Below, piece by piece: positions 1 through 42,559 of a stretch of DNA of 64,000 nucleotides (position 1 is its first letter; every line of letters starts with the position of its first letter). The translations under genes and the position numbers were made by a program. The notes under the pieces were generated by a model. That model did no database searches, had not been told where the DNA came from, and worked only from the letters and a program-made list of their open reading frames with translations. The stretch lies in the NCBI GenBank assembly GCA_054600435.1, contig BAAIJX010000059.1, positions 62,001 to 126,000 of the forward strand. Reading direction: 5' to 3'. The stretch comes from Neophaeotheca triangularis. Lineage: Eukaryota.

Positions 1-3000
1 TCGGTATTGTCACAGTGTAGGTAGCGAGAATAGGAGGTGATATTCCAACAATATATGATGATGTGATGTAATGTAGCTGCTGGGTCAGGGTCAAGAGGTG
101 TTGGTGAACGAGACGAAGAACTTCTCTCTTTCCCATAAGCAACGAATCAAGCCTTGGTCCATTGAATTCAATTCTCCGATATGATGTACATAAATTCTAA
201 TAACACGATCTAGCCTGCGAACCCCGAGCCCTCCTCAGTAGTAGTGCCTCACACTCGAGGCCGGCCTTACAAACACAAAAAAACCGCGAATAATTCTAAT
301 GCTCGTCTCGTGAGTCGTCAGCGTTTTGCCGTCTCCGCAATCGGCCGGCCGAGCTTGGACTCTTCCACTCCCCCGGATCCGAATTGCATAAGCCGGTTAA
401 GTTGTGCACATCATGTCGGGTCTCGGGGGTTGCATAACAAAACCAAATGCAGCCGGCCGCTTGTCGGAGTGGATAAAACTAACCCCCCCTCAAGAATCGA
501 ACCGAACCGTCACCGGTCTTGATAGATAATAAACTGGGATTGAACGAAATACCGAGCCTGGGGGGCCATAGGATCTCAACTTCAACCCAAAGGTGATGCA
601 TCGATGCTGAGCCCATGCAGTCTGCAGGTGGTCTTGTTTGCGGGAGTCCAAGCCTACCCCCAACCCATAAGGTGAGTCGGGAACAGCTACCATGCAATCT
701 CCAGCCCCTTGACCCCCCCTTCATTCAGGCTTCATCCAGGTACCTGCCTGCAACGACACCCTCCCAATTGGAGCTTCAATACGCGTAGCGATACTACAGC
801 GATGGCTCAGTCAGATGCACCGCTTCTAGGAATCGTCTTGAAACCTTCGAAACCTGCTTTAGAGAGATCGTAGATCCTCTGCGCCACTTCTTCCCATAGG
901 ACATTCCGTTATTCGTCTTGTACCCAAACAGGATCTCACCAGTCGCCAGGCATCTTGCGATCACAGTCATGACCTTGCACTTCATATAGGAGCTTGAGCG
1001 TTTCATGAGTGCGCTGATGGTATTCACCAACACGTCGATAAGTGGTCCGCGTTCAATCAGGTTCCAGAACTCACCTGCGAGCTCCATACGAAATCACGCA
1101 GGTGGATTGATACGGCAGACCGAGCAGGACTCGCTGGACTCCGAAGACAATAGCGAGCGCCCTAGAGAAAATGCCGCCCACCACGAGGGGTATGGTGAGC
1201 GCCCCGAGGAAAATGGCGTCTGCCCGATAGGTGGGATGTTGGATTGATGAGCAAGCTGGATCAAGAAGATGCCAAAACTGGAGACCAGTAGGGAAAGGGA
1301 TTCTCCGAAGTCTTTCATCACTTGAAAATTGCGACATAGTCCGAATTTCGACTCTGAGAGTTCATATCTCTGGCTTCGAAGGAGGGACATCGCCTCCGAG
1401 TGCGCTGCGAAGAGGAGCTCTTACTAAGCGAGCTGCGTACCTGGCCGAAGCCATCACACTGCCAACAACACCTTAGCGTCTGGCACTGCGTGTATTCAAA
1501 GCACAACTTCATGCACGTTGATCGCTGCCCGCGTCGTAGGCAGCCCGCCCTCAACAATATTAGTAACTTCGGCCAAGTCCTAGACCTCGATTCAACGAAA
1601 CCATGGGTCCTGAGGTCTCACGGTCAAAGCAACAATAGGAACAAAGCCACCGTACAGCCGGAAGACTGCTGACTCAAGAGATGCTCAGCATGCCGAAGTC
1701 GCCCAAGCCTCATCAAGGAGAGCATGCCGAAAAGCGAGACTTCGCTAAGAAGCTTTGATGGAGAAACTTCCCGTTCGAATACTATGTCGACCACTTTTCT
1801 CCCCTGAGGCTACGACGAGCTCTCCTCCGCGACGGTGTAAGATGCGCCTCCTCCTCTAGAAGCAGAAGAACGTGGTCGCGTCTTGGTATCCAGTAACGGA
1901 AGCGCCCTCATATGTCTCTGATTCAAGCTTATACCCCGGAAGTCGAATTACCCAAATGATGCGGTCGTGTCCAGACATCTAGTAGCGCAAGTGCCTCTTC
2001 TAAGTCCAAACCTATCCTCTAGCAGCTGAAGAACCCAGAACGTGGTTGCGCCCTGGCTCCACGACCCAACCTACTAAGCCTGTTGTGTTGGCTCTTTGAG
2101 CGATTCTGCCGCGAGAGCAAATCTCGCGATGCCTTACACTCCACGCAAAGTTGGCAAACTCGTAATCCCTGATCCGCTTCTTTCAAAGTACGGTCCTCTT
2201 TATCCGACGACGACTACTTCTGGGTTTCGCGATACTTTACAAACCGAGATGGATTAGGAAATCATTGCCAGTCAGAGTGATGACTTAGGAGATTGACTGC
2301 TTATGTAATTGTCATTCAAGGGGCTTTGCTAACATTTCACCTCCCGCGCTACATTACAGCATGATCTGAAAGCAGAAAACTTGACGAATAATGAAGTAGT
2401 GCTGAACGACGTTTTGCTCCATGCCGATATGTTCAAAGATAGAGAAATGAGATCTATTGGGGATGATGATGGCAACGAGTGATAAGGGTGTTTAAACCCA
2501 ATTAACCAGCTTGGCTGCCTTCTGCTCGAAGGCTTCGTCTTAGTGAACGGAATGTGATGCAAAATGCGTTATTGAGTGCTGACAGCCACGCACGCTAACT
2601 GTTTGAGATATATCGAAGCTTCTTAAGGAGCGCCTAAGATTATTATGAATCCAGATTGGCTGAAGAGAGGGTTTTCAAGATACCGAAACAGTTCGGTCCA
2701 AAATTCGTTCCTTCTGTTGTGTACGCAAGTTCAGATAAAGACGATTGATTCAAAGAAGAGCTAACTATTAGCTGTCCGAATTAAGAAGATATGAATGTGT
2801 GATTCTTAGCAGATATGCCTTAGGTATGAATTCCCTCTATCGTGTGTCCTCCCAACTCACTCATAATACATGCCGCTTAATCTTAAGTTAGATGTCCTCC
2901 AAATAGGCAAGCTTCCACGGCGACTCGACTATCTCATAAGAATCGTCATAACACTAGGTATCCGAGTACTGTCAACGTAAAGAGATCGCGGTTCTACTTA

Positions 3001-3052: not shown

Positions 3053-4744
3053 ATGTCACAACTCTCCATCGATTTGACCGCGCCCAACGGCCGAACTTGG
3101 TCCCAACCTACCGGTCTCTTCATCAACAATGAGTTTGTAGAGAGTGAGAGGGGTAATAAACTCATCACTTTCGATCCCGCGTAGGTGTCTCCGATTAACA
3201 TACGTGCGAGGGCGTGTCTACTAACAATCGTCGAAAGCACTGAAGAGGAGATCGCTACAGTCCACTACGCAGGCGTGGAAGACGTTGACCGAGCAGTCCT
3301 CGCTGCTCATAAAGCTCTCAAAAACCCATCATGGAAGCGACTACCCGCCACCGATCGTGGTATGCTGATGCTGAAGTTGGCCGACCTGATGGAGCAGAAC
3401 AAGGAACTGCTCGCCACAATCGATGCCTGGGACAATGGTAAGCATTACCCATACCAGCGGGTAGAGCTATACAGTAAAGAACTGATTTGCGACCTTTCAA
3501 AGGCAAGACATACTCCGAAGCGCTCAACACAGATTTACCCGAGGCAATCCTAACCATCAGATACTATGCTGGTTGGGCCGACAAGAACTTTGGTCAGACC
3601 ATCGAGACGACTCCCGAGAAGTTCGCTTACACCATCCGCCAACCAATTGGTGTTGTTGCTCAAATCATACCATGGAATTACCCTCTCTCCATGGCCACTT
3701 GGAAACTGGGCCCAGCTCTCGCATGTGGGAACACTGTCGTGATCAAAGCTGCAGAAAGTACGCCGCTCAGTATCCTGGTACTGGGTAAGCTAATCAAAGA
3801 AGCCGGGTTTCCTCCTGGCGTGGTCAATGTACTCAACGGGTACGGCAAGGAGACTGGTTCAGCTATGGTGCAACACGAGCTCGTCGATAAAGTTGCTTTC
3901 ACAGGGTCTTCCGGTACTGCATCGCAGATTATGAAAATGGCATCCGCTTCTCTAAAGAACATCACACTCGAGACTGGCGGCAAATCACCACTGCTCGTCT
4001 TCCCTGACGCAGACATGGAACAAGCTGTCAGATGGTCGCACATGGGTATCATGTCAAATCAAGGCCAGATCTGCACGGCAACGTCGCGTCTGTTGGTGCA
4101 GCAGGACATCTACGACGAGTTCGTGGAGAAGTTTGTCAGCCAGCTGAAAGCCACTAGCAAGGTCGGGAACCAGTGGGACGATGCTACTTACCAAGGGCCT
4201 CAAGTCTCTCAGGCTCAATACGACCGCATCATGTCGTATATTGACATTGGCAAGTCAGAAGGCGCAACAATCGTCGCAGGCGGCGCCCCAGACAGCGCCC
4301 GGACTTCCAATGGCGACAAAGGCTTCTACGTCCAGCCAACAGTTTTCACCGGCGTAAAGCAAAATATGCGCATCTACCGCGAGGAGATTTTCGGGCCCGT
4401 GGTAGTGATTGCTAGCTTTGCCGACGAAGACGAAGCTGTCAAGGCAGCGAACGACACTACGTACGGTCTGGGCTCTGCAGTATTCACAAACGACTTGAAG
4501 CGTGCCCACCGTGTTGCGGCGGAGATTGAGGCTGGCATGGTGTGGATCAACAGTACACAAGATTGCGATCCTCGCATTCCGTTCGGAGGTGAGTCGAAAC
4601 GATATGAAGAATCTGCGATGATTCAAATGCTAACGTGTCGTAGGGGTCAAGCTCAGCGGTATTGGTAGGGAACTGGGACAAGCTGGTCTCGAGGCGTATA
4701 CTCAGACAAAGGCGGTTCATGTGAATATGGGGAATGATTTGTAG
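3053..4744 (+). CDS. NAD-dependent aldehyde dehydrogenase (fungal ALDH1/2-type), 4 exons; introns 3181-3237, 3438-3502, 4589-4643
   Basis: Typical fungal ALDH N-terminus MSQLSIDLTAPNGRTWSQPTGLFINNEFV. Motifs IIPWNYP, FTGS, LETGGKSP, catalytic Cys in [18 protein letters not shown], and PFGG|VKLSGIGRELG across the last intron. Introns are canonical GT..CTRAY..AG. Confidence 0.95.
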
Positions 4745-5173
4745 AGAGGAAAAGCATCACGACGCTCAAAATATGTGACCTACTCTTCGGTCTCGCTGTG
4801 ATTGAACCAAAAGACCTAGACTTGGTGCTTGCAAGACAAGTTTCAAACATCTACCCCCTTTATTGACAGCACGTGCGGTTTTCGACTCCTGATAGTCTTG
4901 AATTTGGCAGTGGTATTACCTTCACTCAGATCACCTCTCACTTATCGCCGCTGTGAAGCTTTGCACCGGTATCTATAGCAAAGCAAAAGCCCAATCCAGC
5001 CTAGAGCGTACTACCTAGTAGAACACCTTGTATAGAGCATAAACTTCCTCTATGGCTATAAGAACGATACAGTGCAAATAACTACTAACCAGACGCCGAA
5101 TGCTTATGCTTCAAGGCTAGATACTAGGAATCGATTCACGCAATCTTTTCACAAGCGCCTAGAACTCATCTGT

Positions 5174-6589
5174 CTATAACTTAGCCAGGAGACCCTGACT
5201 GTCCAAGAACGTAACATGGCTTCTTGTTATTTCCTTAACAGAACGGCACCTGTGGACAAGTTAGCGCTATAGGCCTGGCGCAAATCAAGGAAATGTTTTG
5301 CATACCCGGCGAGACCCATAGTCAACCTCAATTCGTGCATCAAGATTTTGAGGCCAAGCTCGACACCCTCTTGTCCATTGTACTGTGACAGACTTAGCAA
5401 ATTCGAGCAGAGCAGCCAAATCTCTAGAAGGTACTCACAGCAAGACCCCAAATAGGTATGCGCCCGACAAATACATGGCAGGCACCAAGCGCGAGTGCTT
5501 TGAAGATGTCCGAGCCTCTGCGGATACCACCATCGACCGCAATAGGAATCTTCGACCCAGCTGCGACGGCACACTCTCTCAGGGCGTCGAGAGTGGCAGG
5601 GACACTGTCCAGCTGTCGGCCGCCATGGTTCGAAACGACGACTCCGTCCAATCCGTACTTGATCGCAAGTGCAACGTCGTCGGCTGACAGGACGCCTTTG
5701 AGCCACACTTGGAGCTTCGTCTGCGAGCGAAGCCACGGCACAGCGGTGCCCCAGTCAAGCGAAGGGTCTGATCCCGTCAAGTCAGATGATACTCCGTTAC
5801 ATGTCGGATCCGGTTCGATGCTTACCGAACTCGTAACTGCGCGTCTCCTGGGTGTGAACGTTTGCGTCTTGGTTCAGCTCGGCTCTGCCGTCGGACAACA
5901 AGTTCGGCCACTCCATGCTGTCGGGGAGCTTGAAATCGTTGCGGAATTCGTTTAGACGTCGTCCGAGCAATGGCACATCTACCGAGAGGAATATCGCTGA
6001 GTAGCCTGCTGTTTCGGCCCTTTCGCGAGGATCTGCTTTGTAGTTTGACGGTCCCGTAGCACGCAAAGCTGCATAGCGTATGGATTAGAAAGGCCCTGTG
6101 CTTTGACATTTTCCATTGACTCTGTCGAGTACGAGGATAAGACCATGGCGATGTTGTAGTTCGCTGCAGCTCGTGACGTTCCGAGCTCGCCGTCTGGGTG
6201 TGCTAGACGATGCATGGCAGATGGACTGAAGCCGAGTGGCATTGAAGTCTGAAAGTGCGTCAGCGTCACGCACGAGCGACCTGGAAACGTTGACGGTATA
6301 CCTTTTGACCGAATAGCTCGGAAGATGTATCGATACTGTCGACATTGACAAGAATACGAGGTTTGATCTTGTAACGATCAAACGCAGCCTCATTGTCCCG
6401 CAGGCTATCTCGTTAGTCAGTCTTCTGGAGTAGCAATTAAGCGCGATAGCAGCACACGTACGTGATTAAGTCCATGGCACCTTCATTGTAGTACTCGCGG
6501 TACATCTTGGGAAGCTTCTTGCTGCCGTACTCGCGAAGGTCGGCAATGCTGTGGACCCGAGCATCCCAAGATTGTCCGCGATTGGCCAT
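5174..6589 (-). CDS. FMN-dependent (S)-2-hydroxy-acid oxidase (glycolate/lactate oxidase family), multi-exon, C-terminal PTS1 (-AKL); apparent frameshift near 6022-6028
   Basis: Starts MANRGQSWDARVHSIADLREYGSKKLPKMYREYYNEGAMD. Motifs SPSAMHRLAHPDGE, SVDVPLLGRR, VSNHGGRQLD, DGGIRRGSDIFKALALGA. Last exon CRSVKEITRSHVTFLDSQGLLAKL*. Homology switches frame at ...KQIL/ERAETAGY with no intron. Confidence 0.9.
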
Positions 6590-7122
6590 GATGATGAGTC
6601 TGAAGCGTCCTGATATATGTATCCTTTATTCAAGAATATGACTGGGACAGTGAACAGTTCCTCGCACTCGTGAAGGATAATGAGCGTGTCGTGCTTATGA
6701 ACGCAGTGAGAGAGAGAGAGAGAGATATAGAGAGAGAGTCATAGTATAAAGTACATGCCTCTACGGGCAACGGCTCGCCGCCACCATCAGAGAGTACCCA
6801 AGGGCCTATGGGGCGGAGCTGGTACAACCACAGATGGCTCGTGGAAAGCTTCCACATCAGGACGATTCACGCTGTCTTTCTGGCAACACTTCGACATCTG
6901 AAGCGGCCCACCTGCTAATGTACATGCAATGTCGCCTCGATCAAGGCGTGTGCTTTGATGATGTGCTGTCAGACGGGTCTGTTCGCAACTCGACTCAATA
7001 GCACCGAATTTAGAGAGCTTATATATTCAGCTACTTGTACCGTACAAATGCCCACGAGAGCCGCCAACAACAGTCAACGGTCGATTCACGTTCCACAGTG
7101 ATTCTATTGAGAAAGACGCAAC

Positions 7123-8809
7123 ATGCACACCGCCAGGACCGTACGCGCTCTGAGCAGCCGCCTAACTCAGCCAGTCCGATCATCGATCGGAGTTGCGCAA
7201 AGGACCATGGCCACGGCAACATGGTCCATCACCCACGAGAAGATTCAAAACATAAAGCCCACGACCAACTTCATAGGCAACGCTTTCACGGATTCCAAAG
7301 CAAAGCAGTGGATTGATCTTCACGATCCTGCCACCAACAACCTCGTCACTCGGGTACCGGAAAGCACGGATGAAGAACTGAAGGAAGCTGTTGCAAGCGC
7401 CCAGACAGCTTTCGAGTCGTGGCGCAACACGAGTTGGCTTTACCGACAGCAGATCATGTTCAAATTTGTCGCTCTCATTCGCGAAAATTGGGATCGACTG
7501 GCGGCATCCATTACACTTGAACAGGGTAAAACGTTTGCAGACGCGCGCGGTGACGTTCTCCGAGGCCTCCAGGTCGCAGAAACCGCTTGCGGCATCACCA
7601 CGCAGGCTCCCGGGCAGGTACTCGAAGTTGCGAAGGACATGGAGACCCGAGAGTATCGGGAGCCGCTTGGTGTCGTGGCAGCTATCTGCCCTTTCAGTGA
7701 GCAGCTCAAGCAAACCCGGTTGCGAGAAGCTAAGCTGACCACCCTTCACAGACTTCCCGGCTATGATCCCATTATGGTCGATTCCAATTGCAACAATCAC
7801 GGGCAACACTTTGGTCCTCAAACCCTCAGAGAGAGATCCTAGTGCCGTCATGATCCTGATGGAGCTCGCCGAGAAGGCCGGTTTTCCTCCTGGCGTAATC
7901 AACGTGATCCACGGTACTAAACGAGCGGTCAATTTTATCCTCGACGAGCCTGCCATTAAAGCTGTCAGTTTTGTTGGCAGCAACTCTGCGGGCGAATACA
8001 TCTACTCCCGAGCTTCCGCGAACGGAAAGAGAGCCCAGGCCAACCTCGGTGCTAAGAATCATGCAATTGTGTTGCCAGATTGCAATAAAAACTCGACCTT
8101 GGATGCTATCGCAGGGGCTTCGTTCGGCGCTGCCGGTCAACGTTGTATGGCTTTGAGCACTGTCATTCTCACCGGAGGCCAAACGCAAAGCTGGCTGCCG
8201 CAACTTGTCGAGAGGGCCGAGCGACTCTCGATCAACGCCGGATTCGAAGAAGGAGTCGACGTGGGTCCGCTCATCAGCCCCGAGAGCCGTGAGCGTGTGG
8301 AACGTCTTATCGAATCTGCAGAGAAAGAAGGCGCCACAATCCTCCTCGACGGCCGTGGCCAAAGACCAGCAGACTACCCGAACGGCAACTTTGTCGGTCC
8401 TACCATCATTACAGGCGTGAAGCCCCACATGGAGTGTTACCGCGAAGAAATCTTTGGCCCCGTTTTGCTCTGCATGGAAGCCGACTCGCTTGAACAAGCG
8501 ACGGACATTGTCAACAAGAACAAGTATGGCAACGGCTCAGCGGTCTTTACAAACTCGGGAGCCTCTGCGGCATGGTTTCAGAAGAACGTGGAGGCTGGGC
8601 AAATCGGCATTAATGTGCCTATTCCCGTGCCTCTCCCCATGTTCAGCTTTACCGGCAACAAGGCCAGCATTGCAGGCGGAGGTGCCAGCACGTTTTATGG
8701 CAAGTCGGGACTGAATTTTTATACCCAAACGAAGACGGTGACCAGTTCATGGAAGGCGGAGGACGCGAAAAGCTCCGTATCTTCCACGAACATGCCGTTT
8801 CAGAAGTAA
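7123..8809 (+). CDS. mmsA: CoA-acylating (methyl)malonate-semialdehyde dehydrogenase (ALDH6), mitochondrial; intron 7697-7751
   Basis: Motifs [69 protein letters not shown]-terminal presequence is Arg/Ser/Thr-rich and lacks acidic residues. Confidence 0.95.
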
Positions 8810-9196
8810 CCACAATAGAATTCGAACATTCAACTCCATTCGTGTGATTTGTTGATGTGTGCAATGATTAGCGAGCAGTCCACGGGTGTCGGATCTTTGG
8901 CCGGCCACGTCCATTTCCAGTGTCTTGACGTCTCTCCTTGGGTACACGTAGGTAAAGGACGTGCTCCAAAAACTTCCATGTTGAGGTGGTGCCCAATGCG
9001 AGGTGTCGCCGCAAATTGAAAATCTTAGCCTTCTTTGTCAGCGCGTCTTTGATGTTTGAGGAAAGCGACCACGAAGGACGTATGCCAGTCACATACCTAT
9101 ATACAACTTACGCTGATCTTCTTGTCTACTTTGGCACTCTCAAGGCATCTGAGAAACCGGGCGGTCAGTAGGAACTCAAGAACCTGAAGGCACAGG

Positions 9197-10402
9197 ATGA
9201 CGAAACTCTTTTTGTATGTGACTTCACTTGGTTTGCCTTCACAATTCAACGTCGACGGCCTTCCACTAATACTCTTCCTTAAATTAGGACCGGCGCCACT
9301 GGCTATATCGGCGGTGATTTTCTCCATGCCGTTACCAACGCTCGTCCTGGGCTCGCAGTCACAGCCCTAGTCCGTCAAGAATCTGCGGCGATCGAGTTGA
9401 AGAAGTTGTACCCTTTTATTGAAATCGTGCAAGGCGATCTTGACGACAGCGAAGCATTGGCTCAAGCTAGCTCAGATGCCGACATCGTGCTCAGTGAGGC
9501 TGGCTCAAAGTTCGTCTCGTTGAGATTATCTGCTAATGTTGGCTTTGAAGATCTCGCGGCTACAAGCCATCTCCCGAGCCTGAAGGCCTTCCACAAGGGT
9601 GCATCAGGTAGAAAGTCTTGTAAGTCACGCCGCGTCGTAAATAGCAAGCCTTCCCTTGGCTAATCCCTTTGCAGCGCACATCATACAGCTCTCAGGAGCT
9701 ACCGTAGTGTCGCAAGACGAGATCAAAGCGAAGAATTTCGGCAACGCAACTGATGACGAATACAACGACATTCGCGACGAGAAGGAGCTTCATAGCATAA
9801 TTCGCAAGCACCAGAATCGTGCTGTCGACAACTACATCTTGGACATTACCGAGCAGACACCACGCGTAAAGACGGCACTAGTCTTCCCTTCGTTAGTCTA
9901 CGGCAAAGGAAACGGTCCTGGCAATCAAAGAAGCATTCAAGTGCCGGAGCTCGCTCGCATTGCCCTTGAGAGAAGGCGAGCCGTCCAAATCGGTCCTGGT
10001 GCGAACATCTGGAGCAACGTTCACATCTCCGATCTTAGCTCGATGCTCGTGCATCTTACCGAGAGCGCTATCACAGGATCAGATGACAAGCAAATTTGGG
10101 GCACCAATGGCTTGTTCTTCGCTGGCGCCCACCCCGGGATACGCTTCGGATCACTAGCGAAAAAAATCGCGGAGGCAGCTTGCAATTTGGGTCTGATCCC
10201 AGACGTAGAGGTCGATGAAATCAGCGCTGCAGAAGCAGACAACCTTTCGCTACACGCATCGGCAATCATTGGAACAAATGCCCGTACGTTGAGCGAAAGA
10301 GCACAAAAGGCGCTAGGGTGGAGTGCAAAGGGGCCCAATCTGGAGGAGGAGGTTCCCTCTACAGTGGCAAATGAAGCGAAGCGGGTGAAATCGACTCCGT
10401 AG
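9197..10402 (+). CDS. NAD(P)-binding Rossmann-fold epimerase/dehydratase-like (atypical SDR), 4 exons
   Basis: Spliced N-terminus MTKLFL|TGATGYIGGDFL (GxxGxxG). Also GDLDD, LVYGKGNGPGNQRSIQVP, WSNVHISDL, and RAQKALGW near the C-terminus. Confidence 0.85.
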
Positions 10403-10866
10403 ACCACGAGTATAGCACGCTTTGAATACAGCCCTGAGCCGACGCCAGTTATGCCACCTGCGACACAGTCTCTACATCTGCGCCAAAGCCCGGGCGTCAC
10501 TTCCGAACATATGTAAGCTTCGCTTTTACGGTCTTCACTTTTGGTTGTTACATATCAGCATGCTGAGAAAGGCACAACTCTTCGACCAAGTTTTCAATGA
10601 TCATGTTGCCGTAGGTTAGGCATCTCGTCAACAACACGCAAACAATCTGTCATGGTTGTACTGAGCCAAACATTGAATGCACAAGTCTTTGTACAAATTT
10701 GCTGGTGCAAACGCTATCATCTAGGTGTCAAAAGCTCCTAATATCCGCAACATTGTACCCTCTGGCTACTCGCTTCTGTCGACAACTTGGAGCTGGACCA
10801 ATTCGTTACACCCCCTTCTCACCAAAACTGGTAGAGCACGGGTATCTTCTCAAACATTGCAGCAAT

Positions 10867-12494
10867 TCAACCATCTTTGAAGATCGATTCAAGTGTCTCG
10901 ACCAGTAGATTTGCTGGGATAGAACTGTCAGTGTACTACCACAAAGCTCTGACCGATGATCCGTTCTTACCATGCTGGTGTTGGAAGATAAGCATAGGGC
11001 GAAGGCGGATGGCGTTCGCTCCGCTACTACCTATCAGGATACCCCTGGACAAAGCCTTTGCAATCACTTCCTCGCGCCTTGGGCTGTCCCACGCGATAAA
11101 CGTGCCACGGTCCTTGCCACGCAAGTTACGGATCTCGTGTGGATACTTTTTCGACAATTGATCCAACGAGCTATAGAGCTGGTCGCCCACTTGAGCGGCG
11201 TTTTCGACCAGACTGAGCCGTTCGATCTCTTCGAAGATGGCTCTAAATATCAAAGCCCGTGCCGGGTCGCCCATCCATGTATTGAACTGGCGATACGGCT
11301 GCTTTGGTCGTAGATTCTGTTTGCCGTAATAGAAGCCGGCGGCTTGGGCTTTCTTGGAGAAGGTGACCATGTCCGGGGGAGTAGGCAAGTCCCAGTGTTC
11401 ATGAGCCCAGAACTTGCCACTCGCGCCGACACCAGTCTGTACCTCGTCAACAATTAACAATACGCCCTTTTGTTCCGTTAGTGCCCGCAGCTTGCGGAAA
11501 AACGAAGCGGAAGCATGGTTGTCGCCGCCTTCAGATTGAATGGGCTCGACGACAACGGCAGCCACAGGTTGAGCCGCTGTGTCCAAAACACGCTCGACCT
11601 CATCTATACAGCGTTGCTCTTCAGCGGCGTTTTCCGAGGTGAACTGGTCGAGAGGGTAATGCAGCTTTGGGAACGGAGCGCTTGGCCAGTCGAAAGAGGG
11701 AATGTCAAGTTTGTGGATGGCCTTGCTTCGAGTCGTGGCAAGACTACCGAATGTGCGGCCATGGAAGCCGCCATTGAATGACATGATCGAGTATTTGGGT
11801 GCACCCGGGGCCTGATTCTGCATGGAAGATTCGATCTCCTCCATTGTAAAATCAGCGTCTCCGCGCTCTCTTGCCCGACGCCACATGAAGGCGGCCTTGT
11901 AGGCTGTTTCGTTGGCATCTGAGCCTGTGGATGCCGTGAATACCTGGTCCATCCCAGGCGGAGTGGCTCGTAGAAGTCCCGTAGACAGGACGCTATCCAT
12001 ATCCATAGAGGGAAAGTTTCCAAGAGCTGGTCTGTTGACGAGAGCCCTGATCATCTCTGGCGATGATGCAGCTTTTGCAACGTTGGGGTTGTTGTACCCA
12101 ACAGCGATTGAAGCGATCTGTGAAAAGCTTGGAATCGCTCTTAGTCTTCTTGCGATAGGCCTCGTTTAGGATGATCGTGTCTTACGCATCGAGGAATTGA
12201 TTACCATCGGCATCAACGATGCTACATAAATATCAGCACATAATGTGACTGGCTTGAGAGCTTCTTCGTGACCTACTAGTTACCACGGCTTTGTTCATAG
12301 TCGACAAGCATCCGCATCGCCGCAGTGTCGAAAACGCGGCCTAATTTTGCTCGGCCATCGATTGATCGAGGCCCGGGAAGGGCAGTCTGGACAGTGGGTT
12401 GCTGAGGTTGGCCTGCGAAAAGAGTCGCATATTGCCGGACTGGACCTCTAAGTAACGAAGGGCGGAATCGCGAGGCGTTGTGGCGATGCGACAT
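10867..12494 (-). CDS. 4-aminobutyrate / beta-alanine aminotransferase (class III PLP, Uga1/GatA family), 4 exons, probable mitochondrial presequence
   Basis: SRGNY|IVDADGNQFLDA|FSQIASIAVGYNNP, GSDANETAYK, FHGRTFGSLATTRSK, EPIQSEGGDNHAS, VDEVQTGVG, PLP lysine in VTFSKKAQ, FNTWMGDP. Last exon ANLLVETLESIFKDG*. Confidence 0.93.
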
Positions 12495-12946
12495 GGTTAC
12501 GTTTGAGGGAATGGAACAGAACGTAGAGATCTGGCGGCGACATTTTTATCTAGACCAAGTTGTCAAAGGCATCATCCGGCAATGTTGTCCTCCATCGGTA
12601 CTCCATACGGTAGTTCAGATGCTCATGCCCGACTTCCTTCCAGGTGTTGTGCGAAGCCTGAGGTTGCTCGTGGACGCCTGCCAATCTGCGCGGCCGGGTC
12701 TGCCCACTGCCATTTTATGCTTTGACAACCAGAACAAGATGACCTTTTTGGAAAGTTCATGACCCATAGCCTAAAGTTGTCATTTACCACGCGTCTCGGT
12801 AATAGAAAGGAGCTCATGGCTTTTAATCTCTCTCAAGCGCCACCTTGTCCGTCTCTGAACGCCATCTCGACATTCGAAGCACGTCAGAAATAGCACTCGC
12901 ACCCTAAATAACAATCCTCACATTACCAGTGCGCTCCTATCTCAAC

Positions 12947-13846
12947 ATGGCACCCCAAGAACTCAAGGGGATCATGGTAGCGCTTATCACTCCATTCACC
13001 GCCGACCAGAAATCTATCGATGAATCCGCATACAAACAGCACATTGATCGCCTCATCGATGCTGGAGTTCACGGTCTGGTTCCCGGCGGTAGCACCGGAG
13101 AGTTCACTGTTCTCTCCTACGAAGAGCGCAAGCAGCTCGTCGAACTCACGGTCAAATCCGCCGCCGGGCGCGTCCCCGTCCTGGCAGGCATTGGCGACAC
13201 TTCCACCGACCGCGCCGTCGATCTCGCCGTCCACGCTGCCCAAGCCGGTGCCGCAGCTGTCATGGTCGTACCTCCGTTCTACGACTCGCCCAACCTCCAG
13301 GAGCTGCACGAGTTTCTCGGAGAGATCCATAACGCCTCCAAGTTGCCCATCTGCTATTACAACATCCCGTCGGCGACCGGGGTGTCACTCTCGCCAGCAG
13401 AGATTGCTGACCTTTCGAAAGTCGGCGTTAAGTACCTCAAAGACACCTCCGGTAACGCGCCAGGCCTTACAGACCTGCTGTTCGACAAAGAGGACCAGAT
13501 TACCGCTTTCAACGGCTGGGACACGCTCACCTTCTATGGCCTCGCTGCCGGTGCCAAAGGTTCCGTCTGGGGAGCGACCAATATCATTCCCGAGCTTTCC
13601 ATGGAGCTTTGGAATGCTGTTGCGGTCAACGGCGACTTGAAGCGCGGTCGCCAAATATGGAAGAAAATTTGGCCGGTGTGCAATTTCCTCGAGAATGGCA
13701 ATTACGCCGCAGCAGTCAAGACCGGGATGGAGCTTCGTGGGTGGTCTACAGGTGGTTTGCGCAAGCCTTTCTCTTTGATGCAGGGTGACCGAAGGGCGGA
13801 GCTTGCCAAGCTCCTAAACAATGCTGGTGTTTCTGTTGGAAAGTAG
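12947..13846 (+). CDS. DHDPS/NAL-family class I aldolase or lyase, intronless
   Basis: GIMVALITPF, GGSTGEF, YYNIP (catalytic Tyr), YLKDTSG (Schiff-base Lys), about 299 aa. Fungi use the alpha-aminoadipate lysine pathway, so this is unlikely to be a true DapA. Confidence 0.9.
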   Translation: MAPQELKGIMVALITPFTADQKSIDESAYKQHIDRLIDAGVHGLVPGGSTGEFTVLSYEERKQLVELTVKSAAGRVPVLAGIGDTSTDRAVDLAVHAAQAGAAAVMVVPPFYDSPNLQELHEFLGEIHNASKLPICYYNIPSATGVSLSPAEIADLSKVGVKYLKDTSGNAPGLTDLLFDKEDQITAFNGWDTLTFYGLAAGAKGSVWGATNIIPELSMELWNAVAVNGDLKRGRQIWKKIWPVCNFLENGNYAAAVKTGMELRGWSTGGLRKPFSLMQGDRRAELAKLLNNAGVSVGK

Positions 13847-14804
13847 CTTATGCAGTGTGATTGAATGAGATGATACAGCTGTATAAAAATCGCCCCTCTC
13901 AATGTTGCCACAGCACCCATCCATAGATCGTCGCAAACATCAACACAAAAGACAAGATGTTCAATGCGAGGATTTCAGTCGAAGCTTCCAGACTCGTTCG
14001 ACATTATGGCTCATGTTTTCGGATCATGAAGAAAGCAGCACAATTTCAGATACGCCAGCGCACGCCCTTGTGAATCATTCGTAGCAGCCTCTCATCCAAC
14101 AAGAAAGGCTGCCCAAGCAACAAGTAACGTCAGATCATGCCCGTGGGCCACATGTACTTGCGAGTGAACCGCTTTACTACTAGCATCCAATGTACCTTGC
14201 CAACTTCCTATCCGAACGAAAAATCAATCTTTACACTATTGAGTCGAGTCTACTCTGTTCCTTTTGTTGTCACACGAGCCTACGTCAACCGTCATGTGCC
14301 TATGACAGTCGACCTACCGTGGTCCGTCCTACCCAGCATGCACTACAACCCCAGCAGTGACCCATCGTATCTTCCATTACCATGTTAGGTCTTGATTTCC
14401 GAAGGTCTTAGACCAAAGACGGCAATATAGCCCACTGAACGATAAACTGTGGGTATAAGACCTCGGAGCAATTGGTTGATAGTACCGCTTATGAACTACA
14501 GCGAGATAACAAGTAGCCGCTGTACGTCTGTGGTTTTGTCCCGCATATCCCCAGATATGCGGCAGGGTTAGCGTTGAGCTGTTTTGGAAACAAAGCAAGT
14601 GTCCACGATGAGGTCTGATACTCGTGACTTGCTCCTGCCAGGTATACTACCCCTGTATCCCCTGGTTGGTATAGATGAAGGCAGGTTGATATGTATCTCG
14701 TGTTGCACTCGCATTCTGAGCCATCATTCTTCGTTAGAATACAGCGCTCTATTCCTGCTTCGTTCTGCTTCTAATCCGCTATTTGCCCTCGAGGCTAGTA
14801 CAAA

Positions 14805-16449
14805 ATGTCGTCCAACGTGCTAGGCAAAATGACTTCCAAGACAAGAGACGATAAACATCTGGGTGACCTTGCTCCAGTTCCATCCGCCCCTGGAGAAGTC
14901 ATCGACGGCGGAGAAGTAGAAGAAGGAGACGCTGTTTTCGGTCTGGTGCAAGGAGGCGGACCAAATTACAGAAACGTACGTAGCAACCACGTGAAAGCGC
15001 GATTGATGCACGTCAGCTGAAAGCTATACAGGTCGGCTGGATCCGGACGACTGTTCTCATGATGAAGACACAGATAGGTCTTGGAGTCCTTGCCATTCCT
15101 TCAGTGTTCGATACACTCGGCATGGCACCTGGTGTTATTTGTCTGTGCGTTATCGCTGGGCTGAACTCGTGGTCGAACTATCGAGTCGGTGCGTTCAAGC
15201 TGAGACATCCGGAGGTATACGGCATCGACGACGTAGGCCAGCTCATATTTGGGCGCATCGGTCGAGAAGTCTTCGCCGTTATGTTCGTCCTTTGTATGAA
15301 CACCAGCCCTTCTAGTCTCTGGATGACCACTGACCGACGACTTCCAGACGAGATCTTCGTTTCCGCCTCCGCCATTTTGAGCACGTCGATCGGGCTAAAC
15401 GCTGTGTCCACACACGGCGCGTGTACAGCCACATTCGTGGGAGTAACTGCAATTGCTGTGTTTGGGCTATCAAGCATCAGGACTCTCTCGAAGCTCTCGT
15501 GGCTCGTATGGGTTGGTCTCAGCTGCATTATTGTATCTAGTAAGCATATGTCAACCACAGAACGATCATGCAAATTACTCAACACACAACTAGTCTTCAT
15601 CCTCACCATCGCATCCGGGGTCCAAGACCGCCCGGCAGCAGCTCCACCGAACGGCCCCTGGTCGTCCGACTTCAAGGTCGTCAACTCGCCCACCTTCGCA
15701 CAAGCAATGGCAGGTATCTCGTCCCTCGTCTTCGCCTACGCCGGCACGCCTACTTTCTTCCCGATCATAGCCGAGATGCGAAACCCCGACGATTACCTTA
15801 AATCGTTGATCGTCAGCCAGAGCTCCGTGTCCTGCATGTACGTAACAATAGGCGTTGTCGTCTACTACTATTGCGGCTCGTATGTCGCCTCGCCCGCGCT
15901 CGGATCCGCTGGCGTGCTCATGAAGAAGATTTGCTATGGAATCGCGCTGCCTGGCTTGCTCGTCACCGCGGTGCTCATCTGCCACGTTAGTGAATCGTGA
16001 AAAACAAACCTACCACAGGCTAACAGATTCATGCACAGATGCCTGCTAAATACTTGTTCGTCCGTTTGCTACGCGGTACTTCCCACCTGAGCTCCAACGG
16101 CTTAACCCATTGGGCAGTGTGGCTCGGCTGCACTGCCTCAGCGGCCGTCATCGCATATATCATTGCTAGCGCAATCCCGGAGTTCGACAGCCTCGTTTCG
16201 CTCGTCGGAGCTCTGCTCGGTACGCCTCTGTCATTCCATCCTATGGGCTTCATGTGGCTGTATGACAACTGGCAGAGTCCGCGCAATGGAGTGTGGAAAG
16301 CTAAGGCGGCTTTCAGCGTATTCATGATCGTGGCTGGAACATTCCTAATGGTTGCTGGGACATATGCGTCAGTGCTCGGGATCATTGAGGCTTACGATCA
16401 GCCAACAACAGGAAGCTGGTCTTGTGCGGACAACTCAAACTCGGTGTAG
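14805..16449 (+). CDS. Amino-acid permease (AAAP/Aa_trans family, Mtr-like), 5 exons
   Basis: GPNYRN|VGW, MKTQIGLGVLAIP, FKLRHPEVYGIDD, FAYAGTPTFFPIIAEMRNP, YVASPALGSAG, C-terminal WSCADNS. Multiple hydrophobic helices and canonical introns. Confidence 0.92.
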
Positions 16450-23115: not shown

Positions 23116-24150
23116 TCACACCTCGCCTCTGAGCAGACGTAGCAACTTCTCAACCCTCGCCTTGTCCGCCTTACGTAGCAAACGGTGCCACTCCTCTTCC
23201 ACCAAGGGCACAAACCAGGTTGGGTGAAGTATACCGCCGATGGTCACAGGCAGTGGGATGCCCATTTGGAACGGAAGACCCACGTGCCCGAGCCATGGCT
23301 TAGCGCGACCGAGAAGGCGGATGGTCGAACTGCCGTCGGCGTAGCTCTGGCGGCTCTGGGTGTCATGCCAATAGATTGTGCGGGGTGGCTGCGTGAGAAA
23401 CATGTTGCTCCAGGAGTGGTTGGGGTTCAGGGGCTTGAGGTAGTAGCCTGGGATGTCGAGCGTGGGGTTACCGTGCAGGGCTTTGAGGGCGACGGTGATG
23501 CGCAGCTCGATGGCGAATTTGTCGGGTCGGATGATGACGGGGTAGGCGGGGTTCTTGATGTGGTGGCCCAGTTCTAACCTGCAGGAGCCGTTGCTGACGT
23601 TGATGGTCATGATGAGTTGCTTGCCATCGTTGAAGTTGTCGAAGAGGAAGGGGTTAAGTTCGGCAAACTGCTGACCTTTCTCCTGGACTGGAGCGCGGAA
23701 GGTAGCACGCTGCAGTCTCACGGAGCCGTCGATGACAGCCTTCCAGTGTTTGCTGACCTGTTCACATTGCAGGATGCCGTAGGGACCAGCTTGGAGGATC
23801 ATCGACTCGAGAATCTCAGTGGTCCCTAGGGCTTCGGCACGGGCGGACCTTTGGGGAATTTCTTTCTTGATAAGGCGCACTGGATTGACTTTTGATATAA
23901 AAATGTCTTTGAGAGAGCCCAAGCGGCCGTTTTCGTATGAAAGGCAATCGTTCTCGACTTGCATGCCGAAGTTGATATCCTGCAAGGTGGAAATCTTGTG
24001 TTGCAGCACAAGGTTTTCGGTTTGCAAGTTGAGATTCTTGTCTTCGAGCAAGCGAAGCTGGAATATGATGCTATCGATCTTCGCTGTCGACAGGAAAGGA
24101 TAGAACGTGGAGGCCAGATCGTCAGCCAGGGAAGGTTGAGGGAAAGCCAT
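23116..24150 (-). CDS. F-box-like protein with N-terminal coiled coil, intronless
   Basis: ALGTTEILESMILQ...VSKHWKAVIDGSVRLQRATF, ELNP and SWSNMFLTQPP are shared with the genes at 44537 and 46118. Heptad-like N-terminus (LEDKNLNLQTENLVLQHKISTLQ). Confidence 0.75.
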   Translation of the reverse strand: MAFPQPSLADDLASTFYPFLSTAKIDSIIFQLRLLEDKNLNLQTENLVLQHKISTLQDINFGMQVENDCLSYENGRLGSLKDIFISKVNPVRLIKKEIPQRSARAEALGTTEILESMILQAGPYGILQCEQVSKHWKAVIDGSVRLQRATFRAPVQEKGQQFAELNPFLFDNFNDGKQLIMTINVSNGSCRLELGHHIKNPAYPVIIRPDKFAIELRITVALKALHGNPTLDIPGYYLKPLNPNHSWSNMFLTQPPRTIYWHDTQSRQSYADGSSTIRLLGRAKPWLGHVGLPFQMGIPLPVTIGGILHPTWFVPLVEEEWHRLLRKADKARVEKLLRLLRGEV

Positions 24151-24249
24151 TGTGCTTGACGTGGGTTGATGTTGATGTCGTATTGATAAAGGTCGAAGAA
24201 GGTTTGAAGGCTAAAGTAGCTTTCGAAGTCAGAGTCTTTGCTGCCCTTG

Positions 24250-25900
24250 TAGACGCACGTGCTGAGAAGACCGCTTGAGCTGATGGTGGAGGATGGCAAA
24301 GGTGGAAGAACAGGTTGAGCCAGAAGATAGCTGTATACTACTCAACTAGAGGCACGTGTCGAAGATTGTTCAGACCGGAAACCGCAAGAGCCGGTGGAGC
24401 CCGAGAAGGATAGTGGAATATGCCTAACCCGAAGTTGACTTTGCTCGAAAGGGCCGGTCGTGGAGGATAAGAAAGGTAAAGAAATAAATCAGACCAGATG
24501 CCAGTTTTATCCTGCTTCTTTGGAGGCACGTGTGTCGGGGATCGGTGACGCCGGGGTCCTTGGGGCTATTGGTGAAGGTTGACAAAGGTAGAAGATCAGC
24601 TTGGACTCGGAGCCACCTTTTATACCTCTTAGTCTGGAGGCATATGTCAATGGAGGTTCGGGTCGAATCCCGTTCGGGCCGAGAACCGCACGGGCCGATG
24701 TTGGAGAATGAGAAAGGTAGAACAACAGGTTGGACTTGGAGCCAACTTTTATCCCACTCGACCTAGAGTTATGTGTGAATGGAGGCACGTGTCGAAGATC
24801 GTTAGGGCCGGGGACCGTAAGGGTCGATGTTGGAGAATGAGGAAAGTAGAAGAATGGCTTGGATTCGGAACCAGCTTCTGTTCTTGTGCCGAAGATCGTT
24901 CAAGCTAGGGTTCGCGAGAGCCGGTGGTAAAGTGTGAGGAAGCCGGAAAGATAGTTGGACTCGGAGCCAGTTCTTTTCTTGCTTCTCAGGATGCACGTGC
25001 CGGGGATCGCTCAAGCCGGGATCTTTGAGGGCTAGTGGTGTAGGATGAGAAAGGCAGAGGAATTGGCTGGACTTAGAGCCGGTTTTCTTTCTGCTTTGCC
25101 GGAGGCACGTGTCGAAGATAGTTCAGGGGCGGATCGTAAGGGCTGCTGATGTAGATTAAGAAATGTAGAGGAAGTCGTTGGACTTCGAGACGGCTTTCGT
25201 TCTGCTTTCCCGGAGGTACGAGTCGACAATCGTTCTTACAGAGGATCGTAAGATTTGATGATGTAGGACGAGAAAGGTCGAAGAATTGCTTGGTGTCGAA
25301 GCTAGTGAAACCTTCAGCTTTTTGTGAAGCACTTGTTGAAGATGTTTAGACGTGATCAAAAGACTTGACCGTGGAGGCCAAGGGCAGATAATGAGAAAAA
25401 TAGAGGCCTAGGTTAGACCGGATGCTGGCTCTCATCCAGATATTCTCAAAGAATGTGTCGAAGGCTGTCCAACGTGATCAGAGGCGGTAACCGTTAAAGC
25501 TGGTAGTGTAGGAAAAGAAGGGTCAAGAAATCAGTTCGACTGGAAGCCGACTTCTTAGTTTTCCAGAAGCACGTGTCGAAGATCGCTGACTGTAATCAGG
25601 GGCTGGGGCCGTCAAAGTCGGTGGTGGAAGATGAGAAAGGTCGAGAAATCAGTTCGACCAGAAGCCAGCTTATATGTTGCTTGTCAGAGGTAAGTGTCGA
25701 AGACCACTGAACGTAATCGGGAGCGCGGGCCGTCAAAGCTAGTGGTGGAGGGTGGAAAAGGGTGTCGGTCCGGCCAGAAGGCAGCTTGTATACTAGTTCT
25801 TTAGGGGCACGCGTCGAAATACCCCTGGCGTGACCGAGGGCAGGGATTGTGAAAGCTAGCAGTTGAGGTTGGGAGGAGGTAAAGCACTGAATAGATATGA
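24250..25900. repeat. Degenerate tandem array, about 13-15 units of roughly 100-145 bp (mostly 111-122 bp)
   Basis: Recurrent core GGAGGCACGTGTCGAAGATCG, with core hexamers at 24256, 24353, 24527, 24641, 24786, 24994, 25106, 25217, 25330, 25452, 25570, 25691 and 25808. Most units also carry GATGAGAAAGGTAGAA...TTGGACTCGGAGCCAG..TTTT. Confidence 0.85.
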
Positions 25901-33710: not shown

Positions 33711-34672
33711 TTTATCGAGGAAAAAGAAACCAGACGCAGGCTTGCGACGTGGCGACCGTGGGGTCTCGTAACCGACGCTGCAAGCCCAGCCGTACGTGTC
33801 AAACTAAGTTGGTGATATCTTCAGCGCAGTTGACGAGGGCGAGGTGTATTTGTAGTCGCGTGGTCAATCAAATCGAAGGGTAAAAGCGCTGGGTAGTAGA
33901 CGTCCAATGTGGAAGGTCTCAATTGCTTGAATAAGGTAGGTAGAAACGGGTGAATGTATGATGTAGCCGAGTGAATCGAAAGTCGTAGTCTATGACCTCG
34001 GAAGCGGGAAGTCGTAACTCAGGTAAAGGCAGGTTTCGGGTTCTCGACGAACGATGCAAGAGAAGCTGTGTCGATTGTTAAGAAATGTCGTTGACTTCTT
34101 CCGGGACTCGCTTCTGCTGCTAGGAGGTATGTTTTAGCTGGCCGTTGTCTCTGGTTCGTCCGAGTGCCGAGAGTTCGAGACCCTGCTCAGTCAGCCAGGC
34201 CAGCCAGCCAGCTAGGGATTAATTTGATTGCGATGTCGGAGATGGCGGGATGGAGAGACGTCAGGATCTGAACGGCGTGTCACGTGCGAGAGACAAAGCC
34301 ACTACGGGAAGACATCCGTGAATTCATACTCGTGCCTTTGACCTCTGTTAAAACCGGGTGTTTTGTTAGATGTCTTTTTGTTCAAAAGATTCGAGCTTTA
34401 CTAGGTAGTATGCAATTAAACAATTTTTAAAGCCTCATAGAACATAACAAAAAGGGCAAGAAAGGGGTGACGGGAACAAACGTAGGGAAACCAAAAGCTA
34501 TCATTTGATAAATCATATTAAAATCTATCTATATAAAAGAAAAGCCTATCAAACTAAAGTGTTAAGTTCCACTACTTATTCAGCAGGCAAAAATGCCTAG
34601 GTACCCCTGCGATATCGTTCAAAAAAAAAAGATTATGCATTCTTTGTTGAGAAGGCAAAAAGAAAAGTTATA

Positions 34673-41972: not shown

Positions 41973-42559
41973 CGGTTAAAGCGCGTTGTGAGAGTAATGG
42001 TTGGAAATTTCGAATCAGCTCGAGACAAGACACAAAACTTGTTGACGCGGTGAGCCTTGTATCATATTCAGTGCCAGCCGTTTCCAGGTAAGCATTGCTG
42101 GTTCTATCTGCTGGGAGTTTTATGAAGTTCTGTCGAGCATGCCGTACCTTTTCAGTAAGGAATCATTTGACTTTTCTTAAAGTTCTCTGAAAACATGTTC
42201 CGGGTTTTTACTGTATGCCAGCCTCGCCATCCCTGTGCCTCCATTTTTCGCGCCGATGCACAGCGGGGGCTGAATGGCAACCTCGACGTCCTAAGTGCCC
42301 AGGTGCATAGGTGGGAGACCGATGGAGCTTCGTCAGCCGAGATCTTCAGCTGCACCCCGCACGCCTCCAATGGCATTACATTACATCGAGACTACTTGAA
42401 CGAAAGACCCATACACGACATCGACGTTTTTGTCTTTACAATCGCAGTCGCGCACCTTAGATCATATCATTTCGTGCTCTTGTCGATTTAACGAAAGATA
42501 CTGGACGCAACACCAAGGGCTGTCAAGGCTCGCAACGGCATCGGACATCACAAAATACC

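Follow-up and report, generated by a model that had tools for sequence, protein, structure and literature searches.

We identified a seven-gene catabolic cluster in the fungus Neophaeotheca triangularis, at positions 3053-16449 of a stretch of 64,000 nucleotides (positions 62,001 to 126,000 of contig BAAIJX010000059.1, assembly GCA_054600435.1, forward strand; the whole stretch is called the window below). The genes encode an aldehyde dehydrogenase (ALDH), an FMN-dependent oxidase, a methylmalonate/malonate-semialdehyde dehydrogenase (MMSDH), a short-chain dehydrogenase/reductase (SDR), an omega-aminotransferase, an enzyme of the dihydrodipicolinate synthase (DHDPS) family, and an amino-acid permease. 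In our reading, to which we give a probability of roughly 55%, the core of the cluster would burn hydroxyproline, or a very similar imino acid, to 2-oxoglutarate, and is joined to an accessory module of the beta-alanine type. The cluster is a real, conserved catabolic cluster, widespread in Pezizomycotina. Its conserved core consists of the ALDH, the peroxisomal FMN oxidase, the atypical SDR, and the DHDPS-family enzyme, to which an Aa_trans permease and a Zn2Cys6 regulator are often added; the N. triangularis locus is an enlarged, lineage-specific form of it. Its features, in window positions, are:

3053-4744, plus strand: ALDH1/BADH-like aldehyde dehydrogenase, 504 aa, 4 exons (3053-3180, 3238-3437, 3503-4588, and 4644-4744; open hand-built model)
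5174-6589, minus strand: FMN oxidase, a homologue of (S)-2-hydroxy-acid oxidase, 6 exons, frameshifted
6590-7122: divergent promoter region of the FMN oxidase and MMSDH genes, 533 bases between start codons
7123-8809, plus strand: CoA-acylating methylmalonate/malonate-semialdehyde dehydrogenase, 543 aa, 2 exons (7123-7696 and 7752-8809)
9197-10402, plus strand: atypical/extended SDR, NmrA/Epimerase-like, 339 aa, 4 exons
10867-12494, minus strand: class-III omega-aminotransferase of the GABA-transaminase type, 485 aa, 4 exons
12495-12946: divergent promoter region of the aminotransferase and DHDPS-like genes, 452 bases between start codons
12947-13846, plus strand: DHDPS/NAL-superfamily enzyme, 299 aa, single exon
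14805-16449, plus strand: Aa_trans (AAAP-family) amino-acid permease, 475 aa, 5 exons; open model

The window is fungal DNA with short introns, and proteins listed for N. triangularis match its aminotransferase and MMSDH at 100% identity. The gene models were built by hand (all introns are GT..AG and 53-74 bases long), Pfam was run on exon-sized frames of the window, and subfamilies were called by the curated cut-offs of NCBIfam. An earlier note, made from the letters of this DNA, had named seven gene families; all seven are found in the order and at the positions it gave, and the two divergent gene pairs that it pointed out are real. The Pfam matches are Aldedh at 3478-4668 (E 4e-145) for the ALDH and at 7111-8809 for the MMSDH gene; FMN_dh (PF01070) at 5424-5873 and 5979-6377 (minus strand); NAD_binding_10, NmrA, and Epimerase at 9283-9663, in exon 2 of the SDR; Aminotran_3 at 10936-12165 (minus strand, E 4e-102); DHDPS (PF00701) at 12908-13846 (E 9e-64), spanning the whole protein; and Aa_trans at 14984-16449, on two exons. 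Gaps of 387-958 bases separate neighbouring genes, and the reading frames are open in six of the seven models, the FMN oxidase being the exception.

Twenty-one fungal orthologues of the DHDPS-like protein were aligned, and a scan of metagenome contigs with this alignment retained 80 loci, 22 of them fungal-like and 58 non-fungal (our own locus labels are given in brackets where they are needed). An FMN oxidase lies around the DHDPS orthologue in 18 of the 22 fungal-like loci (seven loci were checked with Pfam), a regulator of the Zn2Cys6/Fungal_trans_2 type also in 18, an SDR orthologue in nine, and a permease in five. The oxidase, SDR, and DHDPS-like gene are contiguous, with nothing interposed, in four loci whose DHDPS identity is 86-88% (L001, L002, L003, and L006), and permease orthologues, 53-70% identical, adjoin the DHDPS-like gene in five (L009, L010, L014, L015, and L017). 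Eight of 23 fungal loci have an orthologous ALDH next to their DHDPS-like gene, with identities to the window's ALDH of 89% (L001), 84% (L002), and 63-73% (L009, L010, L011, L016, and L029); since copies 63-89% identical adjoin this gene elsewhere, the ALDH belongs to the core of the cluster. Some loci in the set are near-duplicates (L009/L010, L014/L015/L017, and L023/L035), so the independent fungal lineages are fewer than the raw counts. Named orthologues of the DHDPS-like gene, with 69-86% identity, come from Dothideomycetes, Sordariomycetes, and Eurotiomycetes, and the hosts of the cluster include Aspergillus niger, Penicillium, Colletotrichum, Fusarium, and Hortaea, among many others. 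Because the same genes recur together on other fungal contigs, their co-location goes beyond chance; the idea of a catabolic cluster, which was to be given up if the genes were not found together in other genomes, is thus upheld. In one locus (L014, 2098-4671), and likewise in L015 and L017, a secreted-type subtilase (Peptidase_S8, PA, and fn3_5 domains) is encoded within a few kb of four cluster genes, those for the regulator, the oxidase, the DHDPS-like enzyme, and the permease; this could be chance, or could reflect a tie to protein-bound hydroxyproline.

The DHDPS-family enzyme is most likely a deaminase/dehydratase yielding alpha-ketoglutarate semialdehyde, judging from its clade and from the gene context of its relatives. 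Lys165, which would form the Schiff base, Tyr138, and Thr50, whose catalytic roles we take to be those of the family, are invariant in the 21 fungal orthologues. Prokaryotic relatives were sought in contigs from one genome per species, and neighbours were counted within 6 kb of the match. The best 80 loci, at 47-69% identity, are all from Actinomycetota by record title, with Geodermatophilus on top. A proline-racemase-family gene is present in 72 of these 80, a D-amino-acid oxidase (DAO) gene in 58, both in 55, and either in 75, and a close ALDH is present as well in 44. Among the 58 non-fungal metagenome loci, 50 carry a proline-racemase-family gene, a DAO gene, or both; in the loci sampled, Pro_racemase, DAO, and Aldedh were confirmed by Pfam. 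These neighbours are those of the established bacterial trans-4-hydroxy-L-proline route, in which, according to the passages of PMC4113996 that deal with it, a DHDPS-superfamily enzyme turns pyrroline-4-hydroxy-2-carboxylate, by dehydration and deamination, into alpha-ketoglutarate semialdehyde, which an ALDH takes to 2-oxoglutarate. In a midpoint-rooted tree of 48 rows, all 23 fungal DHDPS-like rows form one clade (support 100/99), sister (99/92) to a clade of Geodermatophilaceae; the remaining Actinomycetota branch outside both. Such a topology would be expected of one ancient transfer of the gene from an actinobacterium into fungi.

Other identities for this enzyme were tried and rejected, mainly on NCBIfam scores. 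As a true DapA it scores 195.4 on TIGR00674, short of the cut-off of 206.15. As an aldolase it reaches 145 against 281 and 127 against 382 on the NAL models, 118 against 390 for KDG aldolase, and 140 against 397 for the HpaI type. The KdgD models give 113-129 against cut-offs of 278-374, and the ranking of PDB matches does not favour KdgD either. A HOGA1-like identity was dropped as HOGA1 is absent from the best 60 solved-structure matches and the aldolase models score low. The best PDB matches are generic DHDPS (E 1.6e-46), and no aldolase stands out among them. We conclude that the enzyme is probably not an aldolase. The cleavage of a 4-hydroxy-2-oxo acid to pyruvate and 3-aminopropanal, which the earlier note had placed at the centre of the pathway, is therefore unsupported: the model scores are far too low, no solved aldolase is outstanding, and the actinobacterial members of the clade lie in hydroxyproline clusters.

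From these relationships a route can be proposed. The permease would import the substrate; it is proposed to take up imino or omega-amino acids. The peroxisomal FMN oxidase would then act at the C2-N bond and turn the L-imino acid into delta1-pyrroline-4-hydroxy-2-carboxylate, which would dispense with both the 2-epimerase and the D-amino-acid oxidase of bacteria; this would be the weakest step of the route, and our confidence in it is lower than in the reading as a whole. The DHDPS-family enzyme would convert the pyrroline, by dehydration and deamination, to alpha-ketoglutarate semialdehyde, and the ALDH would oxidise this to 2-oxoglutarate. We infer the latter function, that of an alpha-ketoglutarate semialdehyde dehydrogenase, from the conserved adjacency of the ALDH and DHDPS-like genes. 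The ALDH keeps the catalytic Glu (LETGGK) and Cys (GQICTA), and NCBIfam gives it no specific subfamily. The SDR has a Gly-rich NAD(P)-binding motif (GATGYIG) and no YxxxK in all its 339 aa; its neighbours in the Atlas are fungal clusters of the Epimerase family (score 0.98), one of its orthologues has no sequence match in PDB, and it may be a reductase, an epimerase, or a regulator.

The aminotransferase and the MMSDH most likely make up a second module, which would convert beta-alanine, or an omega-amino acid like it, to malonate semialdehyde and then to acetyl-CoA, and which appears to have been stitched into the cluster in the window's lineage, where it shares divergent promoters with core genes. 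The second exon of the MMSDH alone scores 487 on TIGR01722 (cut-off 448), and the aminotransferase scores 620 on TIGR00699, the model of the eukaryotic 4-aminobutyrate transaminase (cut-off 567). The catalytic Cys of the MMSDH is present (GQRCMA), and an Asn stands in place of the hydrolytic Glu (ANLGAKN); absence of this Glu is the rule in CoA-acylating dehydrogenases. The N-terminus of the MMSDH is Arg-rich and resembles a mitochondrial presequence, and that of the aminotransferase is Arg-rich too. Homologues of the MMSDH degrade malonate semialdehyde in Candida albicans (Ald6p) and Aspergillus pseudoterreus (ApAld6), according to the parts of PMC8058442 concerned with them; given this documented activity, the module would most naturally start from beta-alanine or from an omega-amino acid like it. 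A branch from beta-alanine through malonate semialdehyde to acetyl-CoA had been suggested for these two genes before, and it is still their natural reading.

Phylogenetic trees indicate that both genes are extra paralogues and not the housekeeping gatA and MMSDH orthologues. Hortaea werneckii and Cladosporium fusiforme each have one copy in the eight-row clade (SH-aLRT 100) to which the window's MMSDH belongs, and a second copy in a species-like clade with Aspergillus. The aminotransferase belongs to a clade of seven rows (100/100) with Hortaea werneckii and five other sequences, and is excluded from a 13-row clade (100/100) that includes Aspergillus gatA and sequences of further Dothideomycetes, Cladosporium and Friedmanniomyces among them. 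It follows that they are not the sole housekeeping copies, a possibility that the earlier note had left standing against its own proposal. In the probable source run, three other contigs (18, 35, and 40 kb) align at below 90% identity to conserved parts of the ALDH (3102-3134 and 4523-4563), the MMSDH (7309-7359 and 7870-7915), and the aminotransferase (11255-11289 and 11392-11451). A stretch of 510 letters in the window corresponds to 455 in the MMSDH-like contig, which fits a paralogue without the 55-base intron, and the three contigs fit unlinked paralogues in the same genome.

A pairing of the module with the core was found in one other fungal-like locus (L011), where the gene order differs from that of the window and the MMSDH gene is divergent from the DHDPS-like gene. 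We also compared the sizes of the contigs matched in separate protein searches with the DHDPS-like enzyme, the aminotransferase, and the MMSDH. Matching sizes suggest that contigs of 46,070 and 13,145 bases hold orthologues of all three, that one of 30,079 bases holds DHDPS and aminotransferase orthologues, and that those of 38,317, 34,970, and 29,051 bases hold aminotransferase and MMSDH orthologues.

In bacteria, 17 of the 80 actinobacterial loci have a true MMSDH gene no more than 6 kb from the hydroxyproline genes. The loci concerned fall among L084, L096-L109, L125, L126, L141, and L156 among Actinomycetota, and L033 and L060 from metagenomes; the MMSDH of L033 is a true member of its family (705 bits on TIGR01722). 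Both a class-III aminotransferase and an MMSDH lie near hydroxyproline genes in Kocuria (L141), Streptomyces oryzae (L156), and the metagenome locus L060. The Kocuria pair is on the same strand as the hydroxyproline genes, and the S. oryzae pair has its own PucR regulator. Two loci of the Nanopelagicales type (L033 and L098) have AA_synth (PF06684) and EthD genes between the MMSDH gene and the pair of DHDPS-like and proline-racemase genes (at about 5100-6000 in L098); histidine-utilisation genes lie just upstream in L033, and the usual close ALDH was not seen near either locus.

The FMN oxidase is proposed to be an L-hydroxyproline (imino acid) oxidase, on the basis of a pattern of mutual exclusion and of precedents for amine oxidation in its family. 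Neither Pro_racemase nor DAO genes occur in any of the 18 fungal loci that carry the FMN oxidase. A further fungal contig (L028, 10917-16177) has a DHDPS-like gene, Pro_racemase, DAO, a Fungal_trans_2 regulator, and a split AA_permease, and is without the FMN oxidase; it is a second type of fungal cluster, with a bacterial-style gene set. Mutual exclusion is the pattern expected if one gene set replaced the other, and we read the FMN oxidase and the epimerase/DAO pair as two alternative suppliers of the deaminase substrate. An old report is said to describe hydroxyproline oxidation by the L-hydroxy-acid oxidase of rat kidney; a literature search for it gave nothing usable.

The active site of the oxidase shows a change that is only suggestive. 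In an alignment of one orthologue (L023) with human HAO1, residues His260, Arg263, Lys236, and Arg167 are kept. Tyr132 of HAO1, which we take to contact the substrate oxygen, is replaced by Cys in the window and in L002, L005, L007, L008, and L023, that is, in every orthologue inspected, and Trp110 is replaced by Tyr. Tyr occupies the Tyr132 column in 120 of 147 aligned rows of the family, and Ser, Cys, or Leu does so in eight of the ten representatives nearest to the cluster enzyme (identity 47% or more). Thus, of the features of a GOX/HAO-type enzyme, the FMN_dh domain, the His, the two Arg, and the Lys are present; the active-site Tyr and an intact frame are not. The peroxisomal signal is conserved, AKL or ARL ending 14 of the 14 fungal orthologues whose last exon was found.

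Several observations weigh against the hydroxyproline reading, and the first concerns this same gene. Exon 3 of the oxidase contains 2 extra bases near 6024, which shift the frame and lead to a stop after about 175 residues, so the oxidation of hydroxyproline may be lost in the sequenced strain, and the cluster there may be decaying. The remainder of the gene reads through cleanly, including the C-terminal AKL (PTS1). The 2 bases are absent from all six orthologous loci whose alignment spans the site (seven were tried; the alignment of L008 ends short). Contigs of the probable source run are identical to the window letter for letter, with the 2 bases included. A second sample with the same organism code (run X2) gives contigs without exactly these 2 letters at 6024; the break is thus confined to this strain or assembly, and a close relative has an intact gene. 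The run X2 contigs also lack three bases of the window at 8246 and one base each at 8448, 11945, and 15141 (in the MMSDH, aminotransferase, and permease exons) and show 14 further indels; two haplotypes seem to be present. Another run (X3) contains almost none of the stretch.

The other points concern substrate, regulation, and linkage. Among solved FMN_dh structures, those nearest to the oxidase are oxidases of glycolate or hydroxy acids (human HAO1 and plant glycolate oxidase, about 1e-94); a tblastn search with Pro_racemase and DAO queries from fungi and bacteria found neither gene in the 64-kb window; and the proposed route leaves the SDR without a step. No Zn2Cys6 pathway regulator occurs anywhere in the window, and the five promoter regions share no 8- or 9-mer common to at least four of them and no common CGG..CCG site. 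L011 is the only one of the 22 fungal-like loci with both the aminotransferase and the MMSDH, and linkage on the contigs of 46,070 and 13,145 bases and on the others, resting on matched sizes, is indirect. In bacteria, 12 of the 17 MMSDH cases represent one layout (MMSDH, DHDPS, and proline racemase), mostly in uncultured Nanopelagicales or in metagenome-assembled genomes of Actinomycetota. Finally, a plasmid search for kin of characterised deaminases gave only 14 records, at 34-41% identity and in other contexts, and the Azospirillum brasilense region among them is not the Lhp cluster.

Some of these points would suit a locus made of two unrelated units, in which an independent beta-alanine/3-aminoisobutyrate pair was moved by rearrangement into a decaying hydroxyproline-type cluster, the two having neither substrate nor regulation in common. 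Such a history would account for the absence of the pair from most fungal loci, for the uninterrupted oxidase, SDR, and DHDPS-like genes of L001, L002, L003, and L006, for the lack of a common promoter motif and the separate PucR-type regulator of the S. oryzae pair, and for a window with a frameshifted oxidase and no regulator. We find it doubtful, though it fares best among the alternatives: the association recurs in differing orders (in the window and in L011), on at least two more contigs by the size match, and independently in Actinomycetota, and both genes are extra paralogues that arose beside housekeeping copies.

It is also rather unlikely that the cluster serves hydroxyproline with an FMN enzyme that is an ordinary 2-hydroxy-acid oxidase (of glycolate, 2-hydroxyglutarate, and the like), pyrroline-4-hydroxy-2-carboxylate being made by unlinked enzymes or by the SDR. 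The oxidase is the steadiest neighbour of the DHDPS-like gene, excludes and is excluded by the epimerase/DAO pair, and has lost the substrate-contacting Tyr across its subfamily. In favour of this alternative are the kinship of the oxidase to HAO1 and glycolate oxidase, the fact that the Tyr is the only one missing among the residues for 2-hydroxy-acid oxidation, and the use in mammals of a DHDPS-family enzyme and HAO1 in hydroxyproline catabolism.

The substrate favoured in the earlier note, an acid of the 4-hydroxylysine or 4-hydroxypipecolate type, would be converted to a 4-hydroxy-2-oxo acid and split by an aldolase into pyruvate and 3-aminopropanal, the latter passing through beta-alanine and malonate semialdehyde to acetyl-CoA. 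This chain has its attractions, using six of the seven genes and giving a role to an aminotransferase and an MMSDH that are dedicated paralogues, interleaved with the core and sharing its divergent promoters (interleaving is seen in L011 too, in a differing order); the Schiff-base Lys for aldol cleavage is kept, and a six-carbon analogue of hydroxyproline is conceivable as the substrate. We nevertheless regard it as improbable. The bacterial members of the DHDPS-like clade sit in hydroxyproline clusters, and the enzyme scores far under the cut-offs for NAL, KDG aldolase, and the HpaI type. In addition, most fungal clusters with an adjoining ALDH hold neither aminotransferase nor MMSDH, so the ALDH need not be the 3-aminopropanal dehydrogenase that the chain calls for, and its substrate should not depend on the transaminase branch. 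Hydroxyproline fits better on both counts, the context of the clade and the independence of the ALDH. Of the pathway first suggested, the conserved cluster, the paralogues, and the beta-alanine branch stand, the central aldolase is unsupported, and the preferred substrates are less likely than hydroxyproline.

A core acting on a non-nitrogenous 2-keto-3-deoxy acid, with an enzyme like KdgD or L-2-keto-3-deoxyarabonate dehydratase and the FMN oxidase forming the 2-oxo group from a 2-hydroxy acid, is very improbable: DHDPS-superfamily dehydratases do also give alpha-ketoglutarate semialdehyde for an ALDH, and an FMN-dependent 2-hydroxy-acid oxidase suits such a substrate, but the KdgD scores are less than half of their cut-offs, the cluster's transporter is of the amino-acid permease type, the gene neighbourhoods of the relatives point to hydroxyproline and not to sugar acids, and no sugar-acid dehydratase or lactonase was seen by Pfam in seven fungal loci.

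Returning to hydroxyproline, a more specific version of our reading would have the locus represent an undescribed route in filamentous ascomycetes, with a peroxisomal FMN enzyme that lacks the Tyr and acts directly on L-hydroxyproline in place of the bacterial epimerase and D-amino-acid oxidase, a deaminase acquired once from kin of the Geodermatophilaceae, and a transaminase/MMSDH pair tied to the pathway in both fungi and Actinomycetota. We put this forward as a tentative possibility. In a full-text literature search, neither a cluster for hydroxyproline catabolism in fungi nor an FMN-dependent oxidase of hydroxyproline was described, and no fungal cluster of this composition was found there, in agreement with what had been supposed. 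Plant cell-wall glycoproteins and collagen are rich in hydroxyproline, and the cluster provides a concrete set of genes to knock out in studies of hydroxyproline use by filamentous fungi. If the FMN enzyme is an L-imino-acid oxidase, it would widen the chemistry of the 2-hydroxy-acid oxidase family and be a clear case of one enzyme substituting for two in a pathway. The deaminase gene would be an apparent bacterial transfer that later gathered eukaryotic partners. The beta-alanine-type module is joined repeatedly to hydroxyproline genes in two kingdoms; if the transaminase/MMSDH pair is tied to the pathway, there would be an unrecognised metabolic link from hydroxyproline to compounds of the beta-alanine type.

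The surroundings of the locus are unrelated to it on the downstream side, where a Pex24p gene and a gene for a TPR protein follow; positions 1-3000 gave no Pfam match. Farther away, 29261-60689 holds ordinary genes, among them those for a glyoxalase-fold protein, GST, Nop16, a ZIP transporter, and a GATA factor (54769-56499), as well as indoleamine 2,3-dioxygenase (32241-33803, minus strand), histidinol dehydrogenase (42461-44002), and glutamate-cysteine ligase (58923-60689). Long frames on the minus strand at 23119-27814 have no Pfam match and coincide with a GC skew of +0.30 at 24001-26000; a second extreme, -0.28, lies at 54001-56000, over the GATA-factor gene.

We compared the cluster with four known systems. 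Mammalian hydroxyproline catabolism uses PRODH2, ALDH4A1, GOT2, and HOGA1, with HAO1 in the glyoxylate/glycolate branch, and like the window it combines a DHDPS-family enzyme, an ALDH, an aminotransferase, and an HAO1-type FMN oxidase. It differs from the proposed core in passing through 4-hydroxyglutamate to an aldol cleavage that gives glyoxylate and pyruvate, the aminotransferases are of different classes, and HOGA1, as noted above, is not among the best structural matches of the window's DHDPS-like enzyme. With the fungal catabolism of beta-alanine and malonate semialdehyde, in which the Pyd4-type enzyme of Lachancea kluyveri is a beta-alanine transaminase, the window shares a GABA-transaminase-family enzyme and a CoA-acylating MMSDH, both above the curated cut-offs; here, however, the two genes are paralogues outside the housekeeping clades and are embedded in another cluster. 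The prn cluster of Aspergillus nidulans is likewise a fungal imino-acid cluster that combines permease, dehydrogenase, and Zn2Cys6 regulator genes (the last being present in the window's relatives), but its enzyme families are wholly different; the window's cluster has no proline dehydrogenase or P5C dehydrogenase, and its proposed chemistry is at C2-N, not at C5-N.

Fungi also carry homologues of bacterial 3-hydroxyproline genes, and the cis-3-hydroxy-L-proline dehydratase of Trichoderma reesei has been characterised, as stated in the part of PMC5144071 that treats fungi. The bacterial trans-4-hydroxy-L-proline pathway resembles the window's cluster in that a DHDPS-family enzyme from this clade (identity up to 69%) is encoded beside an ALDH and a transporter of amino acids, in its dedicated regulator (found in the window's fungal relatives), and in 2-oxoglutarate as the expected end product. 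In contrast to that pathway, the window and all 18 oxidase-bearing fungal loci are without the epimerase and the D-amino-acid oxidase and have in their place a peroxisomal oxidase of the FMN_dh family and an atypical SDR, and the fungal genes have introns, bidirectional promoters, and, in the window, an added transaminase/MMSDH module.

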